DNA of 64,000 nucleotides from an uncultured beta proteobacterium (GCA_903933915.1 CAIZLW010000108.1:2747-66746), one strand, 5' to 3'; counted from the stretch's first letter, positions 7,432-29,987 are shown. Numbers and translations: made by a program. The notes: a model not told the origin generated them from the sequence alone.

Positions 7432-8454
7432 ATGCGTTTCGCCGGAATCATCAGTTGCGCTGTGCTCAGCGCACTCAGCCTCCCCGCGCTGGCCCAGGAA
7501 AACCTGCTGAACCTCTACTCGTCGCGCCATTACCAGACCGACGAGGCGCTCTACGCCAATTTCACCAAGACCACCGGCATCAAGCTGAACCGCATCGAAG
7601 CCGGCGAAGATCCGCTGATCGAACGCCTGAAAAATGAAGGCACCTCCAGCCCCGCCGACGTATTGGTCACCGTGGATGCCGGGAGGCTGTGGCGCGCCGA
7701 ACAGATGGGCCTGTTCCAGTCCATCGATTCGAAAGTGCTCACGGCACGCCTGCCCGACCACATGCGCACCCCCAACAACCAGTGGTTCGGCTTTTCGGCG
7801 CGGGCGCGCGTAATCATTTACAACAGAACTGCGCTCAAGGCCGCCGATGTGCAGAACTACGAAGACCTCGCCGATCCTAAACTCAAAGGCAAGGTCTGCA
7901 CCCGTTCAGGCAGCCATGTCTACAACCTGTCACTGATGAGCGCACTGATCGAACACTGGGGCGAAGCCAAGGCCGAGCAATGGGCCAGGGCTGTGGTGGC
8001 GAATTTCGCGCGCTCACCCAAAGGCGGCGACACCGACCAGATCCTCGCAGTGGCTGCCGGCGAATGCGGCGTGGCGATCAGCAACAGCTATTACTACGTG
8101 CGCCTGCTCGCCTCGGAAAAACCCGAAGACCGCAAAGCCCTCGCCAACATCGGCGTGGTCTGGCCCAACCAGAAAAGTTTCGGCACGCACATGAATGTCT
8201 CGGGTGCGGGCGTCGTCAAATACGCAAAAAACCGCGAAGCTGCAGTGAAATATCTCGAATACCTCTCCAGCGACCAGGCGCAGGGCTACTTCGCCGAGGG
8301 CAACAACGAATGGCCGGTGGTCAAAGGCGCGCCGCTGAACAACAAGGCACTGGCTTCGCTGGGCAGCTTCAAGATGGATACGCTGAATATCAGCGCGCTG
8401 GGGAAGAACCAGCCGCTGGCGCAGAAGATTTTCGACCGCGTCGGTTACAAATAA
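7432..8454 (+). CDS. fbpA: Fe(3+) ABC transporter periplasmic substrate-binding protein
   Basis: 340 aa with a signal peptide, then NLYSSRHYQTDEALY...RIEAG, typical of the FbpA/AfuA ferric-binding family. Confidence 0.8.
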   Translation: MRFAGIISCAVLSALSLPALAQENLLNLYSSRHYQTDEALYANFTKTTGIKLNRIEAGEDPLIERLKNEGTSSPADVLVTVDAGRLWRAEQMGLFQSIDSKVLTARLPDHMRTPNNQWFGFSARARVIIYNRTALKAADVQNYEDLADPKLKGKVCTRSGSHVYNLSLMSALIEHWGEAKAEQWARAVVANFARSPKGGDTDQILAVAAGECGVAISNSYYYVRLLASEKPEDRKALANIGVVWPNQKSFGTHMNVSGAGVVKYAKNREAAVKYLEYLSSDQAQGYFAEGNNEWPVVKGAPLNNKALASLGSFKMDTLNISALGKNQPLAQKIFDRVGYK

Positions 8455-8457
8455 GCG

Positions 8458-10152
8458 TCAATCTCGCTGCGACCCGCTGGCCGGCCGCAGGATCATCCGC
8501 GACAGTATGATCAACGGCAGCAGTCCCACCACGACAATGGTCAGCGCTGCCGTTGATGCTTCTGCAAGACGCTCGTCAGAGGCCAGGTTGTAAGCCTGCA
8601 CCGCGAGCGTGTCGAAATTGAAGGGGCGCATCACAAAAGTCGCCGGCAGCTCCTTCATCACATCCACAAACACCAGCAGCCCTGCCGACAGCGCGCTGCG
8701 CCACAGCAACGGTGCATGGACATGAATCAGCGTTGCGCCCGGTCCGTAACCGAGTGATCGCGCCGCATCATCCATCGATGGCGTGATCTTAGCCAGTCCG
8801 GCGTCCACTGCCTGCAGCGACACCGCAAAAAAACGCACCAGATAGGCATAGACCAGCGCGGCGATGCCGCCGGTGAGTATCAGCCCCGGCGCCACGCCGG
8901 TTGCCGCTTCGATCCAACCCGCCAGCACATGGTCGAAACGCGTCACCGGAATCAGCACACCCACCGCAATCACTGCGCCGGGCACTGCATAGCCGAGGCC
9001 GGCAATGCGATTGGACCAGCGCACCAGCGGTGTCTTTGAGGTGCGGCCGGCATAACCGACGACCAGCGCCAGCAACACCGCAAGCATTGCGGTCAACGCG
9101 GCCAGCGTCACCGTATTCCGTGTCAGCGTGACGTAGCGCGTGCCAAACTGGGCATCCCCCGAAGTCAGCGCCATATAAAGCATGATGCCGGCCGGCAACA
9201 GAAAACCGAACACCAGCGGCATCACGCAGAACGAGACCGCTGCGCCGGCGCGCCAGCCGCGCAACCGGTAGACATTGCGCAGCCGCTTGCGATGGGAGGC
9301 GCTGTGAAAGCTGGCGCCGCGCCGGCTCAGCTTTTCAATCAGCAACACGAGAAACACGAAGCTCAGCAGGATTGCCGACAACTGCGCGGCAGCCATGTGG
9401 TCGCCCAGCGAAAACCAGGCGCGGAAAATGCCCGTGGTGAAGGTCTGCACGCCGAAATAGGCGACCGTGCCGTAATCGGCCAGCGTCTCCATCAATGCCA
9501 GCGCGGTGCCTGCGACGATACCCGGACGCGCCAGCGGCAGCGCCACCTTGCGGAAGGTGCCCCACGGCCCGTAGCCGGAAACGCGCGCCACTTCGAGCAT
9601 GCTGTCGGACTGCTCGAGAAAAGCCGCGCGCGCCAGCAGGTAGACATAGGGATAAAGCACCAGCGACAGCATGATGATGGCGCCGCCCAGCGAGCGCACA
9701 TCAGGAAACCAGTAATCCTGCGCGCCCCACCCGGTCAATTCGCGCAACAGGCTCTGCACCGGACCGGCGAACTGCAGCAGATCGGTGTAGGCATACGCCA
9801 TCACGTACGCCGGCACCGCCATCGGCAACAGCAATGCCCATTCGAACAGGCGATGTCCGGGAAAGCGGCACATCGTGGTAATCCATGCGGTCGTCACACC
9901 GCCCACCATGACGCCCAGCGCAACGCCGCACATCAGCAGCAGCGAATTGCTGATGTAATCCGGCAGCACGGTTGAAGCCAGGTGATGCCAGGTATCGGTT
10001 GCCGGCGCCGTCAGATTGAACAGCACCACCAGCACCGGTAGCGCGAGCAGCGCCGCCAACCCCACCGCAAAGAGGGTCAACAAGCGCGGCCGTTGCCGGG
10101 GTGTTACCAGGGCAGTGTCTTGCAGCGTGGGCGGTAAGGTAGCGGTGGTCAC
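8458..10152 (-). CDS. fbpB: iron(III) ABC transporter permease (duplicated 2x6 TM FbpB type)
   Basis: A 564-aa polytopic membrane protein with two ABC permease EAA-like loops (EVARVSGYGPW... and DDAARSLGYGPG). It uses a GTG start. Confidence 0.8.
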   Translation of the reverse strand: MTTATLPPTLQDTALVTPRQRPRLLTLFAVGLAALLALPVLVVLFNLTAPATDTWHHLASTVLPDYISNSLLLMCGVALGVMVGGVTTAWITTMCRFPGHRLFEWALLLPMAVPAYVMAYAYTDLLQFAGPVQSLLRELTGWGAQDYWFPDVRSLGGAIIMLSLVLYPYVYLLARAAFLEQSDSMLEVARVSGYGPWGTFRKVALPLARPGIVAGTALALMETLADYGTVAYFGVQTFTTGIFRAWFSLGDHMAAAQLSAILLSFVFLVLLIEKLSRRGASFHSASHRKRLRNVYRLRGWRAGAAVSFCVMPLVFGFLLPAGIMLYMALTSGDAQFGTRYVTLTRNTVTLAALTAMLAVLLALVVGYAGRTSKTPLVRWSNRIAGLGYAVPGAVIAVGVLIPVTRFDHVLAGWIEAATGVAPGLILTGGIAALVYAYLVRFFAVSLQAVDAGLAKITPSMDDAARSLGYGPGATLIHVHAPLLWRSALSAGLLVFVDVMKELPATFVMRPFNFDTLAVQAYNLASDERLAEASTAALTIVVVGLLPLIILSRMILRPASGSQRD

Positions 10153-10214
10153 TCGATGCCGGCACCTGCAGTGCCGCAGTAGACGTAAGTTACGGAAAAA
10201 CCAAGAGAAATCAT

Positions 10215-10233
10215 TCTAACAAGAATCATTATC
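10215..10233. promoter_or_regulatory. Fur box in the divergent fbpB/fbpC intergenic region
   Basis: tctaacaagaatcattatc matches 14 of 19 positions of GATAATGATAATCATTATC by my hand alignment, with the 3-prime 13 nt matching 11/13. It sits between two iron-transport genes. Confidence 0.5.
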
Positions 10234-10258
10234 AGCAGCAAAACGGTATAATTTCGGC

Positions 10259-11329
10259 ATGCCAGCCCGTCTTGATTTCAATGACGTCTCCCACGCCTAT
10301 GAAAACACGCCCGTACTGCAAGGGGTGAGTTTTCATGTCGAACCCGGGGCGATCGCCTGCCTGCTCGGCGCCAGCGGCTGCGGCAAAACCACCGTTCTGC
10401 GCTGCATTGCCGGCTTTGAACCGATACTGGGCGGATCGGTCGCTCTGGACGGCGAGATCATGAGTGCTCCCGGCATATCCACGGCGCCGGAGCGACGGCG
10501 AATTGGCGTGGTGTTCCAGGACTACGCCCTGTTCCCCCACCTCACCGTGGCCGGCAATATCGCCTTCGGCCTGCGCCACGCAAGTACGGACGAAAGCGCC
10601 GCCCGTGTCGCCGAATTGCTGGAGATGGTCGGTCTCGGCAAAATGGGCAACAAATATGCGCACGAACTCTCCGGCGGCCAGCAGCAGCGCGTCGCACTGG
10701 CCCGGGCATTGGCGCCGCGACCGCGACTGCTGCTGCTCGACGAACCCTTCTCCAATCTTGATGTGGAAATGCGTGAACGGCTGAGCGTTGAAGTACGCGA
10801 CATTCTCAAACGTGAAAAAACCACCGCCATTCTGGTCACGCATGACCAGAATGAAGCCTTCAACATCGCCGACATGATCGGCATCATGCGCAATGGCCGC
10901 ATCGAGCAATGGGATACGCCGTACCAGCTCTATCACGAACCGCGAACGCGGTACGCCGCGGAGTTCATCGGCCAGGGCCTGTTTCTGCCCGGCGATGTGC
11001 TTGACGACGGCCGCATCCGGCTTGAAGTCGGCGAGTTCGTCCCTGATGTCGCACCGCAATGGCCCGCCGGAACGGCTGTGGATGTGCTGCTGCGACCGGA
11101 TGATGTGCTGCATGACGATTCCAGCGCCATGCAGGCCATGGTTCTGCACAAGGCCTTCCGCGGCGCCGCGTTTCTGTACACCCTGCAGCTGCCGCACGGC
11201 GGACAGGTGTATTCACTGGTGCCCAGCCATCACAACCACGCCATCGGCGAAAAAATCGGCATTCGCCTTGAACTCGACCATCTGGTCGCCTATCCGCGCG
11301 ACCCCGCGGCAGAACAGGTTCGCGGCTGA
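10259..11329 (+). CDS. fbpC: ABC transporter ATP-binding protein (iron/polyamine importer type)
   Basis: It has Walker A GASGCGKTT, the signature [15 protein letters not shown], Walker B LLLLDEP and a C-terminal TOBE-like domain. Confidence 0.85.
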   Translation: MPARLDFNDVSHAYENTPVLQGVSFHVEPGAIACLLGASGCGKTTVLRCIAGFEPILGGSVALDGEIMSAPGISTAPERRRIGVVFQDYALFPHLTVAGNIAFGLRHASTDESAARVAELLEMVGLGKMGNKYAHELSGGQQQRVALARALAPRPRLLLLDEPFSNLDVEMRERLSVEVRDILKREKTTAILVTHDQNEAFNIADMIGIMRNGRIEQWDTPYQLYHEPRTRYAAEFIGQGLFLPGDVLDDGRIRLEVGEFVPDVAPQWPAGTAVDVLLRPDDVLHDDSSAMQAMVLHKAFRGAAFLYTLQLPHGGQVYSLVPSHHNHAIGEKIGIRLELDHLVAYPRDPAAEQVRG

Positions 11330-11338: not shown

Positions 11339-12394
11339 TCAGGGGGCGGCGCCTGCAGCAGACCGCTGACGGCGCAGTGAGGTCGCCAACTCATGCACCG
11401 CCATCGCATAGTTGATGCTGCGGTTGTATCGGGTAATTACATAAAAATTGTTCAGTCCCAGCCAGTATCGCGGCCCCGCTTCGGACTGCACCAGAAACAA
11501 TGTCGCCAGCGCCTCTTCGAGCGCAGGTTCCAGCGGCACAACGCCGCGCTTCCTGAATTCTGCGACTGCCAGATGCGGCGCAATGCCGGCGGCCAGCATC
11601 GCATCCAGCACCGTGTCGCCGACATCCACCGGCACGATCACCGGCTCGCCTTCGCGCCAGCCGAACTGGCGGTAATAATTGGCGACGCTGCCGATGGCAT
11701 CGGCAACGCGGCGCAGGTCACGCACCCCGTCGCCGTCAAAATCGACGGCATATTTGCGATAGCTGCTGGGCATGAACTGCGGAATGCCGATGGCGCCGGC
11801 GAAAGACCCCTTGAGGCTGTTCAGCGCAATACCGTTTTCGCGCGCCAGCAGCAGGTATTGCTCCAGTTCGCCGCGGAAAAATTCAGCCCTTCGCGGATAA
11901 CCGAACGCGAGTGTTGCCAGCGCATCCAGCACGCCGATGGTACCGGTGCGCCGGCCGAAGATAGTTTCAACGCCGATGGTGGACACGATCAGTTCGGGCG
12001 GCACGCGAAATTCAGCGGCAGCCTTTTCGAGCAGCGTCTGGTGTTCCGTCCAGAACTGCAGGCCAGCCTTGATGCGGGCATCGGTAATGTGGCGCAGACG
12101 GAATTCATGCCAGGGCAGCGCGGTCGCCGGCGCATCCATCGCACGAATGATCGAACCCAGATGCCGGGTCTCACGAAAGGCTTTTTCCAGAGCGGCGCGG
12201 TCAAAACCATGCCGGTCCGTCATATCCTGCACAAACGCACGGATCTCCGGCTCCAATTCACCCCTTGGCGCCGGTGTCGCAGCGATGGCATACGGCACCG
12301 CCATCAGCAGCAAGGCGGCCAGGGCCGGCAACAACCGGGAATATCGTTTCGTCACTCCGGATCGAGGCTGCCATGCACGGGGGATCACGTGCAC
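11339..12394 (-). CDS. mltB: lytic murein transglycosylase B
   Basis: It has a signal peptide, the GVETIFGRRTG motif, GAIGIPQFMPSSYRKYAVDFDGDG and NFYVITRYNRS, the hallmarks of the MltB family. Confidence 0.85.
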   Translation of the reverse strand: MHVIPRAWQPRSGVTKRYSRLLPALAALLLMAVPYAIAATPAPRGELEPEIRAFVQDMTDRHGFDRAALEKAFRETRHLGSIIRAMDAPATALPWHEFRLRHITDARIKAGLQFWTEHQTLLEKAAAEFRVPPELIVSTIGVETIFGRRTGTIGVLDALATLAFGYPRRAEFFRGELEQYLLLARENGIALNSLKGSFAGAIGIPQFMPSSYRKYAVDFDGDGVRDLRRVADAIGSVANYYRQFGWREGEPVIVPVDVGDTVLDAMLAAGIAPHLAVAEFRKRGVVPLEPALEEALATLFLVQSEAGPRYWLGLNNFYVITRYNRSINYAMAVHELATSLRRQRSAAGAAP

Positions 12395-13146: not shown

Positions 13147-14202
13147 CTACAAATCGATACGCCGCATTACCGCGCGACTGTTGCCGAAACAAGGGATGTA
13201 AACGGAGTGCGTCCCGGGCCCGCCCGCAACAATCAAATGAATGTCTTCCGGGCGCGGCGAAATCGGCAACAGCGTATCGTCGCGCAACTCGCCCAGTTCC
13301 GGTGTCCGCGAAGCGCGGGCGCGGTCGATCTCCTTGGCACTGAGATGTTTCACAGCCATCTTTGAGCGCTCCCACAACTCGCGTTTAACGGCGGCTTTAT
13401 CCCACCCCTCGCGGCGGAAAATTTCCGCGTGTTCGCTGCCGAGAATGAACCACGGCTCCCCGCCGTGCACATATTCATTACTGGTCGGGTGAATCATCGT
13501 CTCGGCGATGACCCGCGCCAGTTCAACGGCACCTTTGGCGTGGGTATTCATGTTCATCGTACCCTCGGCGCCGACCACCGTCACCGTGCTGTCGCCAATC
13601 GCAAAGCCGCGTTCGACGTGCAGTGGCTGCCAGGGATGATTTTGTTCATTCTCGGCACAGCAGAATGTGAATTTCCCGGGCTGCCCGTGCGTTGCGCGGT
13701 CCATTTCACCGGGCCAGGCGCCGCCGATGTTCTGCAGGATCAGGCGCAGCGCACGACCCAGCGTGGCGTTGGCCCAGTGGCCCTGGCCGATGCAGTTGAA
13801 GCTTGCGTTCACCTGCAGCTGCTGCGCGACCGGACCATTGAGCACCAGCCACACCGCAACCGGGTTGGTGGTCGCCTGGATGCCCTGCAGATTGAATTCG
13901 GGATCGGACACCGCCTCGGTCGCTGCAATCAGCACCGGCAGATATTCGGGATCACAACCGGCCATCACCGCATTGATGGCGATGCGCTCCACCGTGGCAG
14001 CGCCGAACCCCGGCGCCACACGTGCCACGAGTTCATGGCGGCCGCGGCGGCTGTGCGTCAGCATCCGTTCGACCCGCGCCGCCGTCGGCGGCACAATGGG
14101 CAAACCGTCGCTCCAGCGACGTTCACGGTAAAGCCGGTTGATGGCATCCAGATCGTCGGCAACGTCGAAGGAAGCGGCACGATCAATCATGGGTTCGCTC
14201 AT
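13147..14202 (-). CDS. uncharacterised partner protein of the UGSC selenoprotein (351 aa; DGLPIVPPT / NAVMAGC motifs)
   Basis: The ATG at 14202 overlaps the upstream stop as ATGA, with GGAGAG 7 nt upstream. It begins MSEPMIDR... It is clearly paralogous to residues ~215-567 of the fused protein at 18403..20106, sharing SDGLPIVPPT, A(I/V)N(A/G)VMAGC.PEY.PVL.AA.EA and (L/I)LNGPV. Confidence 0.8.
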   Translation of the reverse strand: MSEPMIDRAASFDVADDLDAINRLYRERRWSDGLPIVPPTAARVERMLTHSRRGRHELVARVAPGFGAATVERIAINAVMAGCDPEYLPVLIAATEAVSDPEFNLQGIQATTNPVAVWLVLNGPVAQQLQVNASFNCIGQGHWANATLGRALRLILQNIGGAWPGEMDRATHGQPGKFTFCCAENEQNHPWQPLHVERGFAIGDSTVTVVGAEGTMNMNTHAKGAVELARVIAETMIHPTSNEYVHGGEPWFILGSEHAEIFRREGWDKAAVKRELWERSKMAVKHLSAKEIDRARASRTPELGELRDDTLLPISPRPEDIHLIVAGGPGTHSVYIPCFGNSRAVMRRIDL

Positions 14203-14744
14203 CGCTGCTCTCCAGCCAGCAGTTTCGCGATGTCCGCCACACACTGCTCTGCGATCTTGCGTACATCCTCACGGCTGCGTCCGCCGAACGGATGCGGAAT
14301 CACCGCAATCGGCAACTTGCTGTTGCCCAGCGCACGCGCCTGCGCCCGGCCCAGGGTCTGAAACGCCGCGGAACAAACGGTCAGGGCCTGCTTGCCGTGT
14401 TTGGTCACTTCGATGCTGTCGTGGACACTCCACGACGCGCAGGATCCTCAGTCCCCGGATCCCGCAATCACCACATCACATTCAAGCGACAGCGCTGCAA
14501 TCACTGCCGGATCGGCAGGAATCGAGGCCGATGATTTGCGGCGTTTTATGACTTTGGCAACGCCATAACGCGACTGCAGAAGTTCGGCCAGGTCATCGGC
14601 CAGATGATTGAAATTCGGCTTTGCGTTGTCGATGAAGCCGACCGTCGCGCCAGCCAGTCCACGCAGGGTCGAGTGTGCAGCCGCAGCCTGCGTGTCGCCA
14701 GCGTGCGGCGCAGTCGGATCAAATAGCGTCAGAGTTCGCATCAT
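14199..14744 (-). CDS. UGSC-motif selenoprotein (181 codons; selenocysteine at codon 99 encoded by TGA 14450-14448)
   Basis: Two same-frame ORF-track pieces (14448..14783 and 14199..14408) are separated only by a TGA. Read-through gives ...DVVIAGSGD-U-GSCASWSVHDSIEVTKHG.... The ATG at 14744 has AGGA 5 nt upstream. The downstream piece has no SD or ATG of its own. A paralog at 19791 has the same U-G-S-C context. Confidence 0.8.
14418..14436 (-). promoter_or_regulatory. SECIS-like hairpin for the locus-1 UGA
   Basis: The mRNA reads GUCGUGGA-GUG-UCCACGAC, a perfect 8-bp stem with a GU-containing apical loop. It begins exactly 11 nt 3-prime of the UGA. Confidence 0.65.
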
Positions 14745-14772
14745 GTCATCCTGAAATGCCGATAAAAAATGC

Positions 14773-15750
14773 TCAGGGATCAAGCCGGATGTTGGCCTGC
14801 TTCACCAGCCGGGTCCACATCTGGATTTCCTTGCCGATGAAAGCCTGCAGTTCCTGCGGCGAGTTGCCGACCGGGGTTGCGCCCAGCGCGAGCAGCTGTT
14901 CGCGCATTTGCGACGCAGCCAGCGACTTCACGGTCTCGGCGTGGACGCGATTGATGACGGCGGGCGCAGTCCGCGCCGGCGCCAGCAACGCGTACCACAG
15001 CGTCGATTGATAACCCGGTACCGTCTCGGAAACTGCGGGAATGTCGGGATAAGCTGGTGACCGTGCGAGACTGGTCATGCCCAGTGCGCGCAACCGGCCA
15101 CTCTTCACATGGGGCATCGAAGGCAAGGGACTGGTGCAGATGATCTGCACCTGCCCAGCCACCACGTCGACCAGCGCGGGTCCCGCGCCCTTGTACGGAA
15201 TGTGTACAACGTTGATACCGGTCAGCGACTGCAGCAGCTCCACCGACATGTGACCGCCAGAACCGGGACCGGACGAGGCGTAATTGATACGGCCTGGCTG
15301 TGCCTTGGCCGCGGCAATCAGCTCCCGGATGCTGCCGACCTTGAGTGAAGGATGCGCCACAAACACCAGCGGCGACTCGGCCACCAGCGTGATCGGCACA
15401 AAATCCTTCAGCGTGTCGTAAGGCAGGTTATTACGCAGCGCCGGGTTGATCGAATGCGTCGCGCTCGCGAGGAACAGCGTGTAGCCATCCGGTGCCGCGC
15501 CTGCGGCAATTTGCGTGGCAATGACCTGCCCGCCGCCGCCACGGTTGTCATTGACCATCTGCTGTCCGAATGCCGTGCTCAGGCTACCAGCAAGCATGCG
15601 GCCGACGATGTCCCCCGCGCCACCGGGCGGATACGGGATGATCAGCCGGATCGGGCGTTGCGGATAACTGTCGGCGGCAAAAACTGAAAACGCGGCGCCT
15701 GACAACAATCCTGATACCAGGACGGTGCATAAAACGAGTTTTTTTACCAT
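14773..15750 (-). CDS. Bug-family (TctC-like) tripartite tricarboxylate transporter substrate-binding protein
   Basis: A signal peptide is followed by YPQRPIRLIIPYPPGGAGD, the canonical Bug N-terminal motif. Its stop is 29 nt upstream of the UGSC gene on the same strand. Confidence 0.9.
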   Translation of the reverse strand: MVKKLVLCTVLVSGLLSGAAFSVFAADSYPQRPIRLIIPYPPGGAGDIVGRMLAGSLSTAFGQQMVNDNRGGGGQVIATQIAAGAAPDGYTLFLASATHSINPALRNNLPYDTLKDFVPITLVAESPLVFVAHPSLKVGSIRELIAAAKAQPGRINYASSGPGSGGHMSVELLQSLTGINVVHIPYKGAGPALVDVVAGQVQIICTSPLPSMPHVKSGRLRALGMTSLARSPAYPDIPAVSETVPGYQSTLWYALLAPARTAPAVINRVHAETVKSLAASQMREQLLALGATPVGNSPQELQAFIGKEIQMWTRLVKQANIRLDP

Positions 15751-15965
15751 AACTCCACGCGCGCTGCGGTGTTTACGGAATGAACGCCGATCTTACCGCA
15801 GCCGACTCGCGCGCCGGGGCATGGCGTTACGATATGGACTGCAGTATCAGCCCTTGCAGGCAGCCGCCGCTCCAGTATTAACCTTGCACACGCTCTCCGA
15901 CAGCCGGCACCGGTGCCAATCATGCAGACATATGCAGACTTGATGTCGCTACACTTAAATGCATC

Positions 15966-16253
15966 TCAAAAATCGCGGATACGTGCGCGAATGATCGACT
16001 GCCTCGGCAACGCGGGTCCCTTGAAAAAACTTGGTCCTGCGGAATTAAAAGCAATGTATTTGATGCTGGTCATCGGAAAAACCATAAGCTGGCCCTCCGA
16101 CTCGACCACCACGTTCTTGCTGTTCATGAACTCCGACAGCTTGATCTGCTTCGCCGCGACGCTTTTGGCCTGCTCCGGAAACTCGAAAGTCATTTTGCTG
16201 CCGTCATTAAAATACAGCGTCATCGTCCGATCATGAGTCATGTCGCCCTCCAT
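15966..16253 (-). CDS. hypothetical small protein
   Basis: A 95-aa ORF in a locally AT-richer stretch. I recognise no family, and coding status is uncertain. Confidence 0.3.
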   Translation of the reverse strand: MEGDMTHDRTMTLYFNDGSKMTFEFPEQAKSVAAKQIKLSEFMNSKNVVVESEGQLMVFPMTSIKYIAFNSAGPSFFKGPALPRQSIIRARIRDF

Positions 16254-16354
16254 TTGGTTGCTCTGCCAGCAGCCAAGCTACCAAATCCACCCCCTGCTGT
16301 CACGATTGAGCCGGTGTAAACTCGTGTGACACCTCTACACCCTCCGGAGACTTG

Positions 16355-17143
16355 ATGATGAGCGCCTATCCCAATCACACCAAACAGCAGTTGGCTGCCG
16401 GCAAAATCGCCGTAGGCATGGGACTGCGCCTCGCCCGCACGGTGGATATCGCCACCATCGGAAAAACCTGCGGCTATGACTGGCTGTTCATCGACATGGA
16501 ACATAACTCGATGGATGTGGACACCGCTGCGCAAATCGCGATGGCCGCGCTGCCGGTGGGCATTACGCCGATCGTGCGCGTCCCCGGCAAGGAGCACCAC
16601 CATGCTTCGCGACTGCTGGATGCAGGCGCACAGGGCATCGTGGTGCCGCATGTCGATACCATCGAGGAGGCCGAGCGCGCCGTGGCCTACTGCAAATATC
16701 CGCCCATCGGCCACCGTTCGGTGATGGGCGTGCTGCCGCAGTTCGGCTATCGCAACCTGCCCGTTGCCGATTCAGCCCCGATCGCCAACGCCCAGACCAT
16801 GGTCATCATCATGCTCGAAACCCCCGATGCCATCGCACAGGCCGATGCCTTTGCCGCCGTACCCGGCGTCGACTCCATACTGATCGGCACCAATGATCTG
16901 TGCGCCGAGATGGGCATCCCCGGACAGTTCACCGACCCGCGCGTCGAAGACGCCTACCGCAAGGTGATTGCCGCCTGCCGCAAGAACAATATCCATCCTG
17001 GAATGGGCGGCGTCTATGAACCGAAGCTGCTCGAGAAATACATCGGCATGGGCATGCGCTTCATTCTCGGCGGCGGCGACATGAGTTTCCTGATGGCCGG
17101 CGCCCGCGATCGCGCCAGCTTTCTCCACGGCCTGAAACTGTAG
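16355..17143 (+). CDS. HpcH/HpaI-family 2-keto-3-deoxy-acid aldolase
   Basis: Contains GYDWLFIDMEHNSMD, RVPG....ASRLLDAGAQGIVVPHV and YPP.GHRS. The ATG follows a GGAGA SD. Confidence 0.85.
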   Translation: MMSAYPNHTKQQLAAGKIAVGMGLRLARTVDIATIGKTCGYDWLFIDMEHNSMDVDTAAQIAMAALPVGITPIVRVPGKEHHHASRLLDAGAQGIVVPHVDTIEEAERAVAYCKYPPIGHRSVMGVLPQFGYRNLPVADSAPIANAQTMVIIMLETPDAIAQADAFAAVPGVDSILIGTNDLCAEMGIPGQFTDPRVEDAYRKVIAACRKNNIHPGMGGVYEPKLLEKYIGMGMRFILGGGDMSFLMAGARDRASFLHGLKL

Positions 17144-17176
17144 GCCACTACGCAATCTTTAACGAGATATCTCCAC

Positions 17177-18343
17177 ATGGTCCGTATTGTCGACGTCCGC
17201 GAAGTCACCAAACCGATCGCCTCGCCGATCCGCAACGCCTATATCGATTTCAGCAAAATGACCACCAGCTTGGTCGCCGTGGTCACCGACGTCAAAGTCG
17301 ACGGTCGCACGGTGGTGGGCTACGGCTTTAACTCCAACGGCCGCTACGGTCAGGGCGGGCTGATCCGCGAACGTTTTGCGCCGCGCCTGTTGGAAGCCGA
17401 TCCGAAAAACCTGCTGGATGAAAGCGGCAGCAATATCGATCCGCACCGCGCGTGGGACGCGATGATGATCAACGAAAAACCCGGCGGCCACGGCGAACGT
17501 TCGGTTGCGGTCGGCACGCTGGACATGGCGATCTGGGATGCCGTCGCCAAAATCGCACGCAAACCGCTGTTTCGTCTGCTCGCCGAAAAACACGGCGTCA
17601 CCGCCAATCCGAAAGTATTCGTCTACGCCGCCGGCGGTTACTACTACCCCGGCAAGGACCTGCAGGCGTTGCGTGCAGAGATGCGCAGTTACCTCGACCG
17701 CGGCTACAACGTCGTCAAGATGAAAATCGGCGGCGCTGATCTGGCTGAAGATTGCCGCCGCATCGAAGCCGTGCTGACCGAGATCGGCACCAGCGCACAA
17801 CTGGCGGTCGACGCCAACGGGCGTTTTGATCTGGAAACCGGAATCGCCTATGCGAAGGCGCTGCGCGAATATCCGCTGTTCTGGTACGAGGAAGTCGGTG
17901 ACCCGCTGGATTTTGCACTGCAAGCCGCACTCGCCGAGTTCTACCCGGGGCCGATGGCCACCGGTGAAAACCTGTTCAGCCACCAGGACGCGCGCAATCT
18001 GCTGCGTTACGGCGGCATGCGCCCGGACCGCGACTGGCTGCAGTTCGACTGCGCACTGTCCTACGGCTTGTGCGAATACGAACGCACGTTGCGTGAACTC
18101 AATATTGCCGGCTGGTCGCCGTCACGCTGCATCCCCCACGGCGGCCACCAGATGTCGCTGAATATCGCCGCCGGACTGGGCTTGGGCGGTAATGAAAGTT
18201 ACCCCGACCTGTTCCAGCCCTACGGCGGATTCCCCGACGGCGTGCGTGTTGAAAACGGCAAGATCACCATGCCGGAACTGCCGGGCATCGGCTTTGAGGG
18301 CAAATCGGATCTGATCAAGGTGATGCGCGAACTGGCGGAGTAA
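17177..18343 (+). CDS. enolase-superfamily (mandelate racemase/muconate lactonizing) enzyme, D-tartrate dehydratase-like
   Basis: The N-terminus is VRIVDVREVTKPIASPIRNAYIDFSKMTTSLVAVVTD...GYGFNSNGRYGQGGLIRERF, followed by MINEKPGGHGERSVAVGTLDMA.WDAVAKIA.KPLF. From memory this closely resembles Bradyrhizobium TarD. The specific activity is inference. Confidence 0.7.
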   Translation: MVRIVDVREVTKPIASPIRNAYIDFSKMTTSLVAVVTDVKVDGRTVVGYGFNSNGRYGQGGLIRERFAPRLLEADPKNLLDESGSNIDPHRAWDAMMINEKPGGHGERSVAVGTLDMAIWDAVAKIARKPLFRLLAEKHGVTANPKVFVYAAGGYYYPGKDLQALRAEMRSYLDRGYNVVKMKIGGADLAEDCRRIEAVLTEIGTSAQLAVDANGRFDLETGIAYAKALREYPLFWYEEVGDPLDFALQAALAEFYPGPMATGENLFSHQDARNLLRYGGMRPDRDWLQFDCALSYGLCEYERTLRELNIAGWSPSRCIPHGGHQMSLNIAAGLGLGGNESYPDLFQPYGGFPDGVRVENGKITMPELPGIGFEGKSDLIKVMRELAE

Positions 18344-18360
18344 GGCAAAAGCACCAAAGA

Positions 18361-18386
18361 AAACGGGCGCCGCGGCGCCCGTTTTC
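18361..18386. terminator. bidirectional rho-independent terminator between convergent genes
   Basis: The stem acgggcgc/gcgcccgt has A-run and T-run flanks (aaacgggcgccgcggcgcccgtttt). Confidence 0.7.
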
Positions 18387-18402
18387 ATTTTAAGCATTCA
18401 GC

Positions 18403-20106
18403 TTATTGACCCGACATCTTGATGGCCTTGCAAACCGGGAAGCCCAGCACGCCGTTATGAGCGAATACGTAGATGCTGTTGCGTCCCAGATCGCCCGTCA
18501 CCACCACCTGAAAATCCTCCGACTTCCACACCAGCGGCACCAGGCGCTGCGGATCGTCGGATTCGTGGAACATCTGCGGAATCCGTCCGGCCTGATGTTC
18601 CTCGGCCAGATTCCAGGTCGGCTTCTGCGTCCAGTCGCGGAGGATTTTTTCGAACATGTGCGCTGGCATCCGCGCCTGCCTGAACAATTCTTCGCGGAAT
18701 TTCTCCTTCGACCAACCACCTGCGGCAATGGTCTCGGCAATGATCGGAGACAGCAGCAGCAGCGGCCGCAGCGTGTCATAACCCTGTCCCACCGAAAACA
18801 TAATCTGCCAGGAATACTGACGCACGACGGCATCCGCGATATACGGCATCAACTCTTCGGGCGTGGCGCCGGATACCGAGGAGATGTGATTTCCGCCGGT
18901 ATAACGGCCAACCGACAGCGCATTGCTGCCCGCAGCGAATCCGTAATCGACACAATTCGGCGTCCAGCCGATTTTTGCAACCACATCCTCGTTTTCTGCA
19001 ACCACGACTCGCCAGGTATTGCCGAACGTAGCCTTGTCATTCTTGTGCGGCAGGAAGCCGGCAACGTTACGCAGATACAGGCGCCAGAAACGACCGACGC
19101 TGGTGTTGGCCTGAAAGCCGTCACGCATCACGCCTTGGGTATAGTTGAATCCCAATGCTTTGATGACCGGTCCGTTGAGAATAATCAGGTTGTCACCACC
19201 CGGCGTATTGCCGCTGTGTTCAACACCGTAATCGTGATCGGCCATGGCCTCGACCGCGGCCACCAGCACCGGCATGTATTCGGGACGGCATCCCGCCATC
19301 ACGCCATTGACCGCCACGCTCCACACCGTCGCCGCACGGTTGTCGGGCAGCATCACGCCCAGCACCTCATCGGCCTTGCGGTCGGTGTGGCGCAGAAACG
19401 CTTCCACCTTCTCAACCGTCGGCGGCACGATGGGCAGACCGTCGGACAGCTCATGCTTGAGGAAATACTCGTTCACTTCCTCAAACGTGCCGCTGCAGAT
19501 GACATCACGAGCGCCGGGTTCACCGCCAACGGTCGCCGCGGCAGGCATTTTGAACAAAGCATTGAGCACGCCATCCAGCGTCAGTTCGCGCACATTCTGC
19601 TGCAGCGCTTTCTTGCTTTGCAGGCCGGGATGGCCGCGCACGGGCGCCACCGCGATATTGGGATACCCCAATCCCAGCGACGCCGCCTTGGCCAGCGTCA
19701 TGAAACTCTCGCACACCAGCGTCGCTGACGGAATACCCGCCGTTTCAGCCGCCACACTGGCCCGCAACACGGCGGGCGTGCAGCTCCCTCAACAACCCAT
19801 CCCGGAGACGACGGCGTCGGCTCCGAGTTCTTTGAGCTTTTGCGGAAGATTGGCAACCACATTGCGTTCGTCGCTGCCGTGGGTGTTGCCGAACAGATCC
19901 CAGTGCAGGAATTTCACGCCGGGGAAACATTCGCGCATGCTGGCCTCGAGTTGCTCGAACACCTCGTTGCCGCGAAACACGTAATCCCAGACCCACGCTA
20001 CCGTCTTGCCTTCGAGCGTGTCCAAGCGCTTGGCCAGCGGCTTGACCTTGGCCTGACGCGGGCCGCGCGGCCACAGCGCGGCGTATTGAGAAGCTGAATC
20101 TGTCAT
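18403..20106 (-). CDS. fused UGSC-selenoprotein / partner-domain protein (567 codons; selenocysteine at codon 106 encoded by TGA 19791-19789)
   Basis: ORF-track pieces 19789..20130 and 18403..19770 are in the same frame. Read-through gives ...DAVVSGMGC-U-GSCTPAVLRASVAAETAGIPSATLVCESF.... The N-terminal ~190 residues are homologous to the 14199..14744 product and the rest to the 13147..14202 product. The ATG at 20106 has AAGGAA upstream. Confidence 0.8.
19760..19777 (-). promoter_or_regulatory. SECIS-like hairpin for the locus-2 UGA
   Basis: The mRNA reads GCCCGC-CGUGUU-GCGGGC, a 6-bp GC stem extendable by CAC/GUG across a 2-nt bulge. It begins exactly 11 nt 3-prime of the UGA, and its loop shares GUGU with the locus-1 hairpin. 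Confidence 0.6.
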
Positions 20107-20253
20107 TTGAAAATTCCTTGCGTGTTGCAAAAAATACAGGATAACGGATCAGCCAATCAGCGACCAGTCGCAGCGCACGTGTTAGCCTTGGATTTCGTCA
20201 TCAGACATCGCAATGTTCCGCGATGCGGACACCGCAAACTTCTGGAGCTGTAA

Positions 20254-21027
20254 ATGTCCGTTCAATTTTCAGACAAGACCGCAATCGTGACCGGCAGCGG
20301 TAACGGTATTGGTGCCGCGATCGCCCATCGCCTCGCTGCAGCCGGTGCCAGTGTGATGCTGGCTGACAATAACGAGGAATCCGCGCATGCCGTTTGCGCT
20401 GAAATCACCGCAGCCGGCGGTCGGGCCGCTGCCTGCAAGGTCGATATCCGCATCCCCGAAGAAGTGCAGGCGATGATCGATTACTCGCGGGAAATGTTCG
20501 GCCCCGCCAACATCCTGATCAATAACGCAGGGCTCGGATCGCAGAAACACTTTCTGGAAACGCCGCTGGCGATGCTGCATCAGATGCTGGAGGTCAACGT
20601 CGTCGGCACCTTCCTCTGCTCGCAGGCCGCCGCACACGACATGATCGAAATGGGCGGCGGACGTATCGTCAACTTTTCATCGCATTCCGGCCTGCTGGGC
20701 AGCAGCGGACGCGCCGCCTATGCCGCCGCAAAAGGCGGGATCATCGCCATGACCCGTGCAATGGCCATCGACCTGGCTCAATACAACATCACAGTAAACG
20801 CCGTGGCGCCGGGACCGATCGACGTCCAGCGCAATCGCAATCAGCACTCGGAAGAGCGTCGGGAAGCATGGCGGCAAGCCGTGCCGCTGGGTCGTTACGG
20901 CGATCCGGATGAAGTTGCGGCAGTGGCGGTTTTTCTGGCTTCCGACGATGCCAGTTATGTCAACGGACAGACCATTTCGGTGGACGGTGGCTTTACGGCT
21001 GCGGGGCTTCGCGTCAAGAATCTCTGA
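20254..21027 (+). CDS. SDR-family oxidoreductase (FabG-like)
   Basis: TGSGNGIG cofactor motif, NNAG, and the YAAAKGG catalytic YxxxK motif. Confidence 0.9.
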
Positions 21028-21787: not shown

Positions 21788-21877
21788 TGGCGGAGAGGGT
21801 GGGATTCGAACCCACGATACGCTTGCGCGTATTCCGGTTTTCGAGACCGGTACATTCAACCACTCTGCCACCTCTCC
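21788..21877 (-). tRNA. tRNA-Ser (anticodon CGA)
   Basis: Hand-folded cloverleaf: acceptor GGAGAGG/CCTCTCC plus discriminator G plus CCA; anticodon stem CCGGT/ACCGG with loop CU-CGA-AA; long variable arm ATACGC-GCAA-GCGTAT; T-arm GTGGG-TTCGAAT-CCCAC. Confidence 0.92.
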
Positions 21878-21929
21878 GGAAACCTGCATTGCCTGTGGCA
21901 AGGGGGCGAATTCTACCAGCGTCAGCGCC

Positions 21930-24254
<2,325 letters not shown>

Positions 24255-24349
24255 GTTTTTTTGCGGGATTTCAGTGAAGCCCCATATGGCGTAGCCACGT
24301 GATGTCGGGACGACAATCCTGCCCGCCTCTACGGCTTTAAATAAAATAC

Positions 24350-24368
24350 TTTAAAAACAAATACTTAT
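24350..24368 (+). repeat. AT-rich 19-nt motif TTTAAAAACAAWTACYTAT, copy C
   Basis: tttaaaaacaaatacttat overlaps the rarA stop codon region, between convergent genes. Confidence 0.7.
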
Positions 24369-25672
24369 TTATTTTTATCGCGGTCGAGTGCACGCAAATG
24401 TGCGAGCTTGTCGGCGATTTTAGCTTCCAGCCCGCGATCGGTCGGCTGATAAAGATCCGCTGACGGCATGCCGTCCGGCAAATAGGTTTCCCCGGCCGCA
24501 TAGGCGCCGGGTTCATCATGGGCGTAGCGGTACTCACGCCCATAACCCAGATCCTTCATCAGCTTCGTCGGCGCATTGCGCAAGTGTTCCGGTACCGGAC
24601 GCGACTGATCGCTGCGCACCAGTTCACGCGCACGGTTGTACGCGACGTAAGACGCATTGCTCTTCGGCGCCACCGCCAGATACAGCGCAGCCTGCGCCAG
24701 AGCCAGTTCGCCTTCCGGCGTGCCGAGGCGCTCGTAAGTCTCGCAGGCGTCCAGCGCCACGCGCAATGCACGCGGATCTGCGAGGCCGATGTCTTCAACG
24801 GCCATACGGATCAGGCGTCGCCCCATGTACAGCGGATCGGCGCCGCCATCGAGCATGCGCGTCAGCCAGTACAGCGCGGCATCGGGCGCCGAACCGCGCA
24901 CCGACTTATGCAGCGCCGAGATCTGGTCATAAAACGCATCGCCGCCCTTGTCGAAACGGCGCAGGCTTTGCGTCAGCGTCTGTTTGACAAAATCGTCATC
25001 GACGTCGGTGCGTTTGGTTTGCTCAGCGGCCGTGGCGATCTGCTCCACCATATTGAGCAAGCGGCGCGCATCGCCATCGGCGTAGGCCACCAGACTGTCG
25101 CGAGCGGAATCCGATAAAGTAAATAAAAACAATGACTTGGATGCGCCCCGCGTAACCAGTTCAGCGAGATCCGCCGCCGTCAGCGGTTGCAGCACGTACA
25201 CCGCCGCCCGTGACAACAGCGCGCCATTCACTTCGAACGAGGGGTTTTCGGTGGTCGCGCCGATAAACGTGATCAGCCCCTGCTCGACAAACGGCAGAAA
25301 GGCATCCTGCTGCGACTTGTTGAAGCGATGCACCTCATCGACAAACAGGATCGTGCGCCGGCCGGACTGCTGCAGTACGATTTCCGCGCGCGCTACGGCT
25401 TCGCGGATTTCCTTGACCCCCGCAAGCACTGCGGAGATGGCAATGAATTCGGCTTCAAATGCCTGGGCCATCAAGCGCGCCAGCGTAGTCTTGCCCACGC
25501 CCGGCGGTCCCCACAGGATCATCGAATGCGGTTTACCGGCTTCGAACGCCAGCCGCAACGGCTTGCCGGGCCCCAGCAGGTGTTGCTGACCGACAACTTC
25601 ATCCAGCGTGCGCGGTCGCAGGCGCTCGGCCAGCGGCGCATCAGGCTCGCGTTTGGCGAACAGGTCGCTCAC
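24365..25672 (-). CDS. rarA: replication-associated recombination protein A (AAA+ ATPase)
   Basis: Contains PLAERLRPRTLDEVVGQQHLLG, Walker A GPPGVGKTT, DEVHRFNK and the MgsA C-terminal domain. Confidence 0.92.
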   Translation of the reverse strand: MSDLFAKREPDAPLAERLRPRTLDEVVGQQHLLGPGKPLRLAFEAGKPHSMILWGPPGVGKTTLARLMAQAFEAEFIAISAVLAGVKEIREAVARAEIVLQQSGRRTILFVDEVHRFNKSQQDAFLPFVEQGLITFIGATTENPSFEVNGALLSRAAVYVLQPLTAADLAELVTRGASKSLFLFTLSDSARDSLVAYADGDARRLLNMVEQIATAAEQTKRTDVDDDFVKQTLTQSLRRFDKGGDAFYDQISALHKSVRGSAPDAALYWLTRMLDGGADPLYMGRRLIRMAVEDIGLADPRALRVALDACETYERLGTPEGELALAQAALYLAVAPKSNASYVAYNRARELVRSDQSRPVPEHLRNAPTKLMKDLGYGREYRYAHDEPGAYAAGETYLPDGMPSADLYQPTDRGLEAKIADKLAHLRALDRDKNK

Positions 25673-25688
25673 CGGGTATCAACCTGAC

Positions 25689-26297
25689 TCATTCGGAAAT
25701 CACATCGGCGCCCTTGGGCGGCGTAAAACGGAACACGTCGGCGGCCAGTCGCGGATTGCGCTCGACATCGGCAAAGGTAATCACGGTGACCTGGCCGAAC
25801 TGGTCACGAAGTTCCATCGCCTCCAGGCCTGACTTGCCGAAGCCCATGCGTACGCGCTCGAACACCGTGTCACGGTTTTTGGGAATAGCCTCCAGCCAGT
25901 CCAGCCCCTTGTCCATGCCGAGATTGGTCAGCTTGTAGTCCCGCTCCAGGTCATTGCTGCCGGAGAGCAGGGCGGCAGGACTGGCGCCCAGCGCACCGTC
26001 CAGTTTGCGCACCGTGACCTGATTGAGATCCTTGTCGTAGATCCACAGCCGGGTGCCGTCGCCGACAATGACCTGTTCATAGGGTTTGAGGTAATCCCAA
26101 CGGAACTTTCCAGGCCGCGAAAACTGCATCACGCCCTGCGCCTGCTGCAGCGGCTTCAGATTTTTATCGAGTACCATTTGCGCGAAGCGGGCTTTGACCG
26201 TCTGCGTCTGGGTCAGAAAAACCTTCAACGCATCGGTCGCTGCAGCAGAAACCGCCAGCGGCATCAGGAACATCAGAAATAACAGGATTCGCATCAC
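25689..26297 (-). CDS. lolA: outer-membrane lipoprotein chaperone LolA
   Basis: It has a signal peptide, FxQ...... G.....PGKFRW.Y..P..Q..V.DG...W.YD..L.Q, and the conserved position downstream of ftsK. Confidence 0.88.
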   Translation of the reverse strand: MMRILLFLMFLMPLAVSAAATDALKVFLTQTQTVKARFAQMVLDKNLKPLQQAQGVMQFSRPGKFRWDYLKPYEQVIVGDGTRLWIYDKDLNQVTVRKLDGALGASPAALLSGSNDLERDYKLTNLGMDKGLDWLEAIPKNRDTVFERVRMGFGKSGLEAMELRDQFGQVTVITFADVERNPRLAADVFRFTPPKGADVISE

Positions 26298-26584
26298 TGG
26301 CTCCGGCGCATGCGCTCGATATTGACGATCCGCCCTGAACGCAGCGTAATCGTTGTCAGGTGGGGATTGGCCGAAGTCGGATAGTAATAAAACGTCTTCA
26401 GGCCTTCACGGATATTGTCGTTGGAACGGTGGTCGGGTTTGCCCGCACGCAACAGCAGATCGCCCTCGGTCATGCCGTGCTCCAGCCGGATATAGACTTC
26501 GAAGGCCATGCCGCGCGACGGCTCTTCAGCCGCTTCGACGACCGGCACCAAAAACAGCAGACATAACAAAATACGGATAGTCAT
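26294..26584 (-). CDS. hypothetical exported small protein
   Basis: 96 aa with a signal peptide. It has a 4-nt overlap with the lolA start. I recognise no family. Confidence 0.45.
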   Translation of the reverse strand: MTIRILLCLLFLVPVVEAAEEPSRGMAFEVYIRLEHGMTEGDLLLRAGKPDHRSNDNIREGLKTFYYYPTSANPHLTTITLRSGRIVNIERMRRSQ

Positions 26585-26640
26585 GGAGAGTCAGATCACG
26601 CCCGGGGCAAAAAGTTTGGCCCTGCGCGTGAAATCAGCGC

Positions 26641-28941: not shown

Positions 28942-29035
28942 CAGGTTCGGTGGTCAATGGCATCAAATTGGATTAACCCGATGATTATAAGTGAAAAACC
29001 CTGCGCACCCGAAGAGTGGCGCGAATCCGTCCGTC

Positions 29036-29066
29036 ATCAAAAACAAACCCCGCCGGAGCGGGGTTT
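29036..29066 (-). terminator. rho-independent terminator
   Basis: On the minus strand, AAACCCCGC-TCCG-GCGGGGTTT is followed by TTTGTTTTTG, just 3-prime of the 29091..29795 gene. Confidence 0.7.
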
Positions 29067-29090
29067 GAGAAAGCACGTGAGCGCTCCGGA

Positions 29091-29795
29091 TTATTTGACC
29101 ATGCACTCCTGGCTTGTTGATCCGCCGCGGATTGCACCGCCACCGACGCCGAGGGTGAAAGGCAACTGGCTCAAATTCAGGCCCGGATCGCCGGGCAGCA
29201 GCACCGGGGGCCTCTTGGGATCCTGGGCAAAGCCAAACTGGCCTTCGCCGATCAATTGGGCGCCGCCCTGGTTCTGCATGATGTAGCTGCCAGAAAATGT
29301 CGTGTGATAAGTACCGGGCTGAAGATTCCCGCAATTGCTTTCACAGTGGTGACTTTCGCCAGTGGAGCCACGGATGCCGATCGTTGCGGTCGAAGTGCCG
29401 ATTTTGTAAACATCCTGGTCTCCGCGCTTACCGATCAGGCCGGTCACCGTGCGCAAACCGCCCTTGAGCAGACGCATGAACATCGCGTCGCCCTGCGGTT
29501 TTTCCTGGGTAAAAGAATAGGATTCCAGTTTCATCGTCGTGTTCGGACGCATGGTGGCTGCGCTGCCGTCGGTGAAATTGATCTGGGCGTAGCTGTCGCG
29601 CTGCGTGGTCAGGACGTCACCGGGCTGGACCTCGGATTTCTGCGACAGGATACGCACAGAACCGTCTAGTCGCTGCACAGACATCGTGCCGCTCAAATGG
29701 GTGATGACGCCGGCTCCAGCCGCAAACGCGGATGCAGCGACCAAGGTCAGCGCAAACGACGCAACAACCTTTAAAACCCCCTGGATCGTATACAT
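29091..29795 (-). CDS. FecR-domain exported protein
   Basis: The ATG at 29795 has an AGGGAGA SD. It has a signal peptide, then G.....G...V.R.DGS...L.....V..GD.L.T...S.A...F.DGS....RPNT. Confidence 0.6.
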   Translation of the reverse strand: MYTIQGVLKVVASFALTLVAASAFAAGAGVITHLSGTMSVQRLDGSVRILSQKSEVQPGDVLTTQRDSYAQINFTDGSAATMRPNTTMKLESYSFTQEKPQGDAMFMRLLKGGLRTVTGLIGKRGDQDVYKIGTSTATIGIRGSTGESHHCESNCGNLQPGTYHTTFSGSYIMQNQGGAQLIGEGQFGFAQDPKRPPVLLPGDPGLNLSQLPFTLGVGGGAIRGGSTSQECMVK

Positions 29796-29987
29796 GTCCC
29801 TATCTCCCTTTGGCGCACTCCCGGCACCACTCGGATAACCGAACGCAATCGTCCGGAATAGCTTATTTTTATACCATAAAGACCAGTCGCCACCAGGAAC
29901 AGTGCCACAACTGTTTGAATCAAATGTGAAAAAAATCACGTTATGCGCGTAATCCCGCGATTTTAACGGGACTCAACCCGCCGGCCT

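Follow-up and report, generated by a model that had tools for sequence, protein, structure and literature searches.

What does a bacterium do with two genes whose reading frames run straight through a TGA codon, set close to genes for the uptake and breakdown of carboxylic acids? The question is raised by a 64,000-nucleotide stretch of DNA from an uncultured beta proteobacterium (GCA_903933915.1 CAIZLW010000108.1:2747-66746), which we call the window and of which the segment from 13,147 to 21,027 is our main concern. An initial annotation, made before any database search, had recognised two selenocysteine (Sec) modules in this segment, one split and one fused, and had guessed at a Sec-dependent reductase or isomerase working on an imported acid. 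Our follow-up identifies the two loci as ancient paralogous copies of one selenoenzyme system, built from a UGSC-family selenoprotein and a partner of about 340 residues. The first locus lies entirely on the minus strand:

15750-14773, minus strand: Bug/TctC-type periplasmic solute-binding protein, 325 residues with a signal peptide (PF03401 TctC, 221.5 bits).
14744-14199, minus strand: UGSC selenoprotein, about 181 residues including Sec, from the read-through translation.
14450-14448, minus strand: in-frame TGA encoding selenocysteine, in the context VVIAGSGD-U-GSCASWSVHD.
14418..14436, minus strand: hairpin of the selenocysteine insertion sequence (SECIS) type, GUCGUGGA-GUG-UCCACGAC, beginning 11 nt past the UGA.
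14202-13147, minus strand: partner protein, 351 residues, its ATG overlapping the stop codon of the UGSC gene (ATGA).

Read-through translation and open reading frame (ORF) coordinates give an apparent operon in which the Bug/TctC gene comes first, the UGSC gene starts 28 nt after its end, and the partner follows in a translationally coupled arrangement by way of the ATGA overlap. These are the three genes that had been named at the outset, and they lie where they had been placed, or close by. The second locus carries both parts in one protein:

20106-18403, minus strand: fused UGSC-partner selenoprotein, 567 residues including Sec, a single frame with one TGA.
19791-19789, minus strand: in-frame TGA encoding selenocysteine, in the context VVSGMGC-U-GSCTPAVLRAS.
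19760..19777, minus strand: SECIS-type hairpin, GCCCGC-CGUGUU-GCGGGC, beginning 11 nt past the UGA; its lower stem may extend further.

Residues 11-175 of the fused protein are its UGSC part (PF24696, 86.4 bits), and the C-terminal 340 or so residues share 32% identity with the partner of locus 1 (E 2e-46). The notion of two paralogous Sec modules is supported; the E..GIP motif 15 residues after the Sec is also there as described. Judged by its sequence, locus 2 belongs to a divergent fused subfamily of the UGSC family. In four further loci (L032, L037, L047 and L077), as in the window, a fused paralogue of the locus-2 type lies a few kilobases from a module of the locus-1 type. This co-location in five loci hints that the two paralogues act together in the same pathway.

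Are the two TGA codons really read as selenocysteine? The answer came from a comparison set of 80 species-level loci, taken from one-genome-per-species contigs and holding 84 UGSC domains and 95 partner domains. The critical codon is TGA in 51 of the 52 strict UGSC motif matches, and a hidden Markov model (HMM) scan sorted the 84 UGSC domains into 78 with TGA, two with Cys, two degenerate and two partial. Wherever there is a TGA, the reading frame downstream of it is conserved, across many phyla. Cysteine forms of the protein (P0242, P0372, P0391, P0401, P0423, L009 and L042) place their Cys in the Sec column, such that GSGD-U-GSC and GMGC-U-GSC line up with the CGGC or CGSC of the Cys homologues.

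The RNA tells the same story. Across 47 sequences of the locus-1 type, 93.4% of cells in the 8-bp hairpin stem are paired, while sliding the partner strand by one to three columns as a control brings pairing down to 18-50%. The stem also shows compensatory swaps, G-C to C-G in 11 sequences and G-C to A-U in four. Two loop nucleotides, G23 and U24, are invariant in this set. In E. coli fdhF, too, the essential G and U of the SECIS loop are nucleotides 23 and 24 when numbering begins at the U of UGA. L009 (8190-8237, plus strand), the sole TGC variant among the strict matches, has lost this hairpin, whereas all 47 TGA homologues of its type keep it; the SECIS thus has a control within the family. 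The HMM scan added another Cys form, L042. Genes of the locus-2 type in L032 and L047 have a hairpin at the same offset, though both peptide and sequence differ from those of the locus-1 type. Part of the hairpin conservation signal is confounded by coding constraint on the SWSVHD peptide, and an Rfam scan returned no SECIS family at threshold for either hairpin.

The PF24696 matches, the conservation of TGA and frame in 78 of 84 domains and the hairpin at 11 nt together argue that neither TGA is there by chance. The overall case that both encode Sec, by way of a canonical bacterial SECIS hairpin 11 nt downstream, is strong. Two things weigh on the other side. No selA, selB, selC or selD was seen in the 64-kb window, whose sole tRNA is a tRNA-Ser(CGA), and public gene calls break every homologue at the TGA, typically into fragments of 99 and 61 residues or of 105 and 455 residues; public homologues of the locus-2 type are all annotated as 455-residue fragments that begin past the TGA. 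Genuine stop codons in broken or split genes would account for both, but that explanation is scarcely credible and in effect already refuted, since frame, motif and hairpin persist beyond the TGA across phyla, homologues have Cys in the same column, and UGSC is recognised as a family of selenoproteins (NF041046; PMC1976440).

Indeed, the family has been known for some time. Locus 1, at 158 bits, and locus 2, at 86.4 bits, both match the Pfam entry PF24696, 'UGSC family' (cut-off 25). Against NCBIfam NF041046, 'UGSC family (seleno)protein', which has a cut-off of 125, locus 1 with U scored as C narrowly misses at 122.1 bits, and locus 2 reaches 42.9 bits. A 'UGSC-containing protein' was described in 2007 as a selenoprotein of unknown function (PMC1976440). 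The Global Ocean Sampling survey of 2008 placed UGSC among the major families (255 Sec forms, 21 Cys forms) and found it abundant in oxic aquatic samples and the commonest selenoprotein family in non-marine ones. It also reported 'UGSC/Unknown_1', a fusion with a conserved domain that contains Cys, and guessed at a thioredoxin-like fold (PMC2398784). Hyphomonas neptunium has been reported as a carrier of a UGSC selenoprotein. The window shares with the family of Zhang and Gladyshev (2007/2008) the U-G-S-C motif, the HMM matches, the SECIS and the fusion to a Cys domain, and the aquatic habitat of the family fits the source of the window; nothing fundamental differs. Our loci are thus new members of an already catalogued selenoprotein family, and the fusion form, too, had been reported. 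The 'Unknown_1' domain is probably the partner that we see in the window.

Across the 80 loci, a UGSC domain lies on the same strand and no more than 600 nt away for 85 of the 95 partner domains: in 28 cases the two are fused, in 39 a separate UGSC gene lies upstream of the partner and in 18 downstream. Of the ten left over, several lie where a contig ends or form the second member of a tandem pair. Such near-obligate pairing supports the earlier idea that selenoprotein and partner make one functional unit, whether as two genes or as one. Fusion in both orders and permutation of gene order, a classic signature, further argue that the two proteins physically interact.

The partner family is large. 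It comprises 5195 clusters at 50% identity (E <= 1e-3), or 1306 at E <= 1e-30, and relatives are encoded in more than 596 species-level genome stretches. These come from Beta-, Alpha-, Gamma- and Deltaproteobacteria and, further afield, from Chloroflexota/Dehalococcoidia, Methylomirabilota/Rokubacteria, Binatia, Actinomycetota, Acidobacteriota and one Methanobacterium metagenome-assembled genome (MAG); a Bacillaceae isolate, Robertmurraya sp. 2P01SA, encodes the system as well. The domain occurs as a stand-alone protein of about 350 residues, in UGSC-partner fusions with a CGSC or degenerate motif, in the reverse order, and as a tandem partner-partner protein. The locus-1 partner has no Pfam or NCBIfam match, and a set of 70 diverse relatives has no Pfam family besides UGSC, except for one member with an added AhpC/TSA domain.

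Which residues does the family keep? In 150 partner representatives, using window numbering, the conserved positions are D32 of a WxDGLPxxPPT motif (141/144), C83 of a VMAGC motif (138/147), T112 (138/149), N145 (145/149), R150 (149/149), R153 (134/149), C181 (135/148), E184 (147/148) and W191 (142/148). A combined alignment of UGSC fragments, truncated fusions and partner-only homologues was dropped, since in MAFFT the UGSC fragments were wrongly placed on the partner domain.

The AlphaFold2 model of the window partner is a confident one (pLDDT 95.7, pTM 0.93). A fold search of the PDB with it gave no meaningful match (best E 0.13, template modelling (TM) score 0.18), and sequence and profile searches of PDB sequences came back empty or with chance matches only. 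Cyanuric acid hydrolase, chorismatase and selenophosphate synthetase were considered as relatives and rejected (E 0.13-0.7, TM below 0.2). The partner, about 340 residues long, is a cytoplasmic domain without a solved structural relative, and its fold may be one not yet in the PDB.

For the fold of the UGSC domain, we turned to the predicted structure of a full-length fused Cys homologue, P0391 (528 residues; pLDDT 93.2, pTM 0.93). Its residues 33-173 form a five-stranded beta-alpha domain, (beta-alpha)5, with a conserved N-x-K-x-N loop after the first strand. The Cys equivalent to Sec, Cys97, follows strand 89-95 by two residues and stands where helix 98-113 begins, in agreement with the strand-helix junction that had been proposed. 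Foldseek found only weak matches in the PDB (best E 2.5e-3), all of them on the UGSC domain, to lumazine synthase, flavodoxin and azoreductase (target TM 0.5-0.6), and the top 50 matches include no thioredoxin-fold protein. The domain is therefore predicted to be flavodoxin-like rather than thioredoxin-like, and the guess of a thioredoxin-like fold made in 2008 (PMC2398784) is not borne out by the model.

In P0450, the partner is fused to a pyridine-nucleotide disulfide oxidoreductase resembling thioredoxin reductase (TrxR; Pyr_redox_2, 141 bits), in P0482 to an AhpC/TSA thioredoxin-fold domain, in P0502 to the catalytic chain of ferredoxin-thioredoxin reductase (FTR; FeThRed_B, 76 bits), and P0427 has a weakly matching NifU-like CxxC tail. 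Alternative redox modules, in other words, replace or join UGSC on the partner. A TrxB-like gene of about 310 residues with a CAxCDG motif adjoins the module in four lineages, Betaproteobacteria (L032), Alphaproteobacteria (L034), Acetobacteraceae (L061) and Acidobacteriota (L077), with a partial copy at the edge of L027. By our rough estimate, chance would place a normally single-copy gene there in far fewer than one of the 80 loci. These fusions and neighbours fit a partner Cys that is oxidised in turnover and re-reduced by a redoxin module. They also fit the earlier suggestion of thioredoxin and TrxB as the source of electrons. In the predicted model, the Sec sits in a U-x-x-C motif at the N terminus of a helix, and the U/CxxC motif is kept in 74 of the 78 Sec forms.

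We therefore lean, at somewhat better than even confidence, towards a thiol/selenol reductase, in two parts or fused, with UGSC as its dedicated selenium redoxin. The partner would be the likely catalytic, substrate-binding subunit of a thiol-dependent reductase, and its active-site Cys would be oxidised in each turnover, to a disulfide or to a mixed Se-S bond. The UGSC domain would regenerate this Cys through a selenenylsulfide, and would itself be re-reduced by a flavoprotein of the TrxR type or by thioredoxin. Less securely, the substrate may be a small imported organic acid or organosulfur acid, delivered in the case of the window by the Bug protein. Of the original proposal of a Sec-dependent enzyme for an imported acid, the redox half has gained from the TrxR-like, FeThRed_B and AhpC/TSA fusions and from the TrxB-like neighbours, whereas the acid half is only plausible.

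Among 96 putative operon neighbours, counted by Pfam family, TctC comes first with 14, followed by divergent UGSC pieces (7), SBP_bac_5 (6), DUF6282 (4), and CoA-transferase III, MmgE/PrpD, luciferase-like monooxygenase and NMT1 (3 each). Checks of single loci add a DctM permease of the tripartite ATP-independent periplasmic (TRAP) type, an HMGL-like protein, an FMN-dependent 2-hydroxy-acid dehydrogenase, proteins like dihydrodipicolinate synthase (DHDPS) and Amidohydro_2. A theme of small organic-acid uptake and metabolism recurs around the module across lineages. The organic-acid neighbourhood first described around the window loci stands in respect of Bug/TctC, which 13 of 25 betaproteobacterial loci have on the same strand at a distance of up to 300 nt, against none of the 55 others; it does not stand in respect of the aldolase and the enolase-superfamily enzyme, present in one and two of the 80 loci, respectively. 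The first gene of locus 1 is a standard TctC-family receptor of the kind found as orphans of the tripartite tricarboxylate transporter family, and the genes scanned at 5.7-29 kb of the window, which make up part of its ORFs, include no TctA or TctB. Bug/TctC genes of this sort are typical of Betaproteobacteria and adjoin cytoplasmic enzymes that presumably process the ligand, as in locus 1.

A number of observations weigh against the reductase, or against its acid substrate. Four Sec forms (L014, L019, L022 and L030) read UGSS or UGTS and have no Cys at +3, which means that no selenenylsulfide can form within the domain. The fused homologues P0366, P0383, P0412, L068 and L077 lack both redox residues, and the tandem partner-partner proteins P0367 and P0451 have no UGSC at all; from these degenerate and UGSC-less forms, it follows that in some lineages the partner can do without a U/CxxC centre. 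The betaproteobacterial loci are rich in Bug genes to begin with (0.18 per kb), and their enrichment next to the module is only about threefold. The genomic context varies greatly from lineage to lineage and indicates no single substrate. Reviews of 2022 and 2026 give UGSC no function (PMC9312934, PMC13188914). The Dehalococcoidia are a case in point for context: in L053, L055, L057, L063 and related loci, a block of partner, UGSC (Sec, in UGSCTACSV) and an NHL/SGL-repeat protein continues with a luciferase-like monooxygenase and an FMN-dependent 2-hydroxy-acid dehydrogenase, quite unlike the betaproteobacterial setting.

What else might the system be? One could see in it a general device for thiol-redox maintenance or repair, akin to a peroxiredoxin or a methionine sulfoxide reductase, with no part in the breakdown of imported acids. 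Most bacterial UxxC selenoproteins have been assigned to redox homeostasis (PMC2398784, PMC13188914), the family abounds in oxic aquatic samples (PMC2398784), its neighbourhoods differ widely by lineage, and fusions to AhpC/TSA, TrxR and FTR would suit an antioxidant system equally well. Yet genes for solute-binding proteins and for enzymes of acid metabolism share operons with the module time and again, the partner is unlike any known repair enzyme, and the presence of two or three paralogous modules in a locus suggests steps in a pathway rather than a single housekeeping function. We consider this explanation unlikely, while taking it seriously.

A little less likely again is an enzyme that does no redox chemistry, a racemase, epimerase, isomerase or lyase in which the Sec and the partner Cys act as nucleophile or as acid-base pair on a carboxylate. 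The UGSS and UGTS forms, with no resolving Cys, would sit comfortably with such an enzyme, as would the partner Cys that is kept in homologues with a degenerate UGSC domain and the neighbours from MmgE/PrpD and the enolase superfamily, in which epimerases and dehydratases are common. Three different disulfide-reductase fusions and the adjacent TrxB-like genes, on the other hand, are hard to explain without a redox cycle, and nearly all Sec forms retain the U/CxxC motif. Binding, traffic or detoxification of a metal, a metalloid or selenium/sulfur, with the clustered Sec and Cys residues as ligands, is improbable: the partner's fold matches to selenophosphate synthetases (E 0.2-0.7) that might favour it do not reach significance (TM 0.12-0.16), the scanned neighbours include no mer, ars or sel genes, and the conserved Arg, Asn and Glu of the partner look more like a site for an organic anion.

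How, then, does the thiol/selenol reductase that we favour compare with systems already understood? GrdB and PrdB, of glycine/sarcosine/betaine reductase and D-proline reductase, are UxxC selenoproteins; each acts on small carboxylates together with another catalytic polypeptide and is recycled by way of thioredoxin-type electron donors. A resemblance to them had been raised at the start, and it did not hold: there is no match to PF07355 or PF09338 at E <= 0.1, none to PF07355 at E <= 0.01 among 70 family members, and no Grd or Prd structure among the fold and profile matches. Nor are GrdA, GrdC, GrdD or other grd/prd accessory genes among the scanned window neighbours, and the partner, which has no Pfam or NCBIfam match, gives no evidence of the cleavage site for pyruvoyl formation expected of a subunit like GrdE or PrdA. 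The analogy is one of function only, with no likeness of sequence or fold detected.

Alike in logic are the redoxin-coupled thiol reductases: the MsrA/MsrB-thioredoxin fusions, ArsC, 3'-phosphoadenosine 5'-phosphosulfate (PAPS) reductase and the peroxiredoxin-glutaredoxin fusions. In these, a catalytic Cys, in many cases paired with a resolving Cys, is regenerated by a separate or fused CxxC or UxxC redoxin, with electrons from TrxR, much as we propose. UGSC/partner differs from them in a catalytic domain unrelated in sequence and fold, and in a redoxin predicted to be flavodoxin-like and not of the thioredoxin fold. Taken to its conclusion, this would make a new class of selenoenzyme, a small-molecule reductase with a novel catalytic fold, regenerated by a selenium redoxin of flavodoxin fold together with a flavoprotein of the TrxR type, in the breakdown of organic or organosulfur acids. 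So complete a picture is possible, and we hold it only tentatively. Were it true, one of the most abundant freshwater selenoprotein families would at last have a function, and aquatic and soil bacteria would be using the system to break down organic or organosulfur acids that they import.

The window alone adds two members to the UGSC family and is not a discovery in itself. The advance is a comparative one: the real unit is UGSC together with a partner of about 340 residues that is missing from Pfam and NCBIfam, and that partner is a client of disulfide-reducing modules whose usual company is solute-binding proteins and organic-acid enzymes. With an isolate such as Robertmurraya sp. 2P01SA carrying the system, ordinary experiments on an old question are now possible.

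Around the two loci in the window lie the following genes:

12962-12480, minus strand: helix-turn-helix (HTH) protein of the XRE/CI type, a possible regulator, 160 residues (PF13443, PF01381, PF07022), 185 nt downstream of the locus-1 partner.
16352-17143, plus strand: HpcH/HpaI-type aldolase (PF03328, 121 bits).
17177-18343, plus strand: enolase-superfamily enzyme of the mandelate racemase/muconate lactonizing enzyme (MR/MLE) type (PF13378, 106.8 bits), convergent with locus 2.
20254-21027, plus strand: short-chain dehydrogenase/reductase (SDR) oxidoreductase (PF13561, 220.6 bits), divergent from locus 2.

The aldolase, the enolase-superfamily enzyme and the SDR are present on the plus strand, as the initial annotation had it; the enolase-superfamily enzyme matches the talarate/galactarate dehydratase model weakly (114.8 bits against a cut-off of 500). 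What did not survive comparison is their association with the module. The HpcH aldolase occurs in one of the 80 loci and an enolase-superfamily gene in two, while an SDR lies within 3 kb in nine and is adjacent in only one. A close relative, the Burkholderiales MAG GCA_030833315.1 (L081-L083), with a partner protein 87% identical to that of the window, keeps both modules, the enolase gene, the TctC gene and the HTH gene. Its aldolase is missing, window positions 15841-17177 being replaced by about 0.9 kb (L081:7506-8367), and its SDR gene is cut by an insertion sequence element (rve transposase) in L081-L083. The enolase gene is kept as a neighbour in close relatives only. Aldolase, dehydratase and SDR are local to this window. 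The replacement stretch in L081 holds an 88-residue ORF and a 111-residue cyclic nucleotide (cNMP)-binding fragment; the window stretch that it replaces also holds a 95-residue ORF (15966-16253) with no family match.

The statement that no dedicated regulator stands next to either locus needs amending, as the regulator-like HTH gene adjoins locus 1 and does so also in L081-L083. In one betaproteobacterial MAG, a regulator with a YheO-like PAS domain and HTH_22 (L001:7171-7797, plus strand) lies about 0.2 kb upstream of the module.

Further along, from 21788 to 31842, the window carries a housekeeping cluster arranged as in enterobacteria, beginning with the tRNA-Ser(CGA) and running through serS (23477-21930 when read on its minus strand, that is 21930-23477), rarA/mgsA (24365-25672), lolA (25689-26297), ftsK (26641-28941) and a trxB-like gene (30880-31842, plus strand), with an Amidohydro_2 gene (23379-24254) inserted between serS and rarA. 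The trxB-like gene was considered as a dedicated reductase for the module and rejected, since it is part of the usual serS-rarA-lolA-ftsK...trxB arrangement.

A second organic-acid cluster spans 44798-52609, with MmgE/PrpD paralogues at 44798-46384 and 48228-49679, TctC/Bug genes at 49719-50708 and 51533-52609, and an HpcH-like gene at 50779-51567; G+C falls to 0.52-0.55 around 48-52 kb. On the near side of locus 1, an ABC importer occupies 7432-11329, consisting of an SBP_bac_8/6/1 binding protein (7432-8454), a 564-residue permease (8458-10152, minus strand) and an ATPase with a TOBE domain (10259-11329), and it is followed by an SLT_2 lytic transglycosylase (11339-12394, minus strand).

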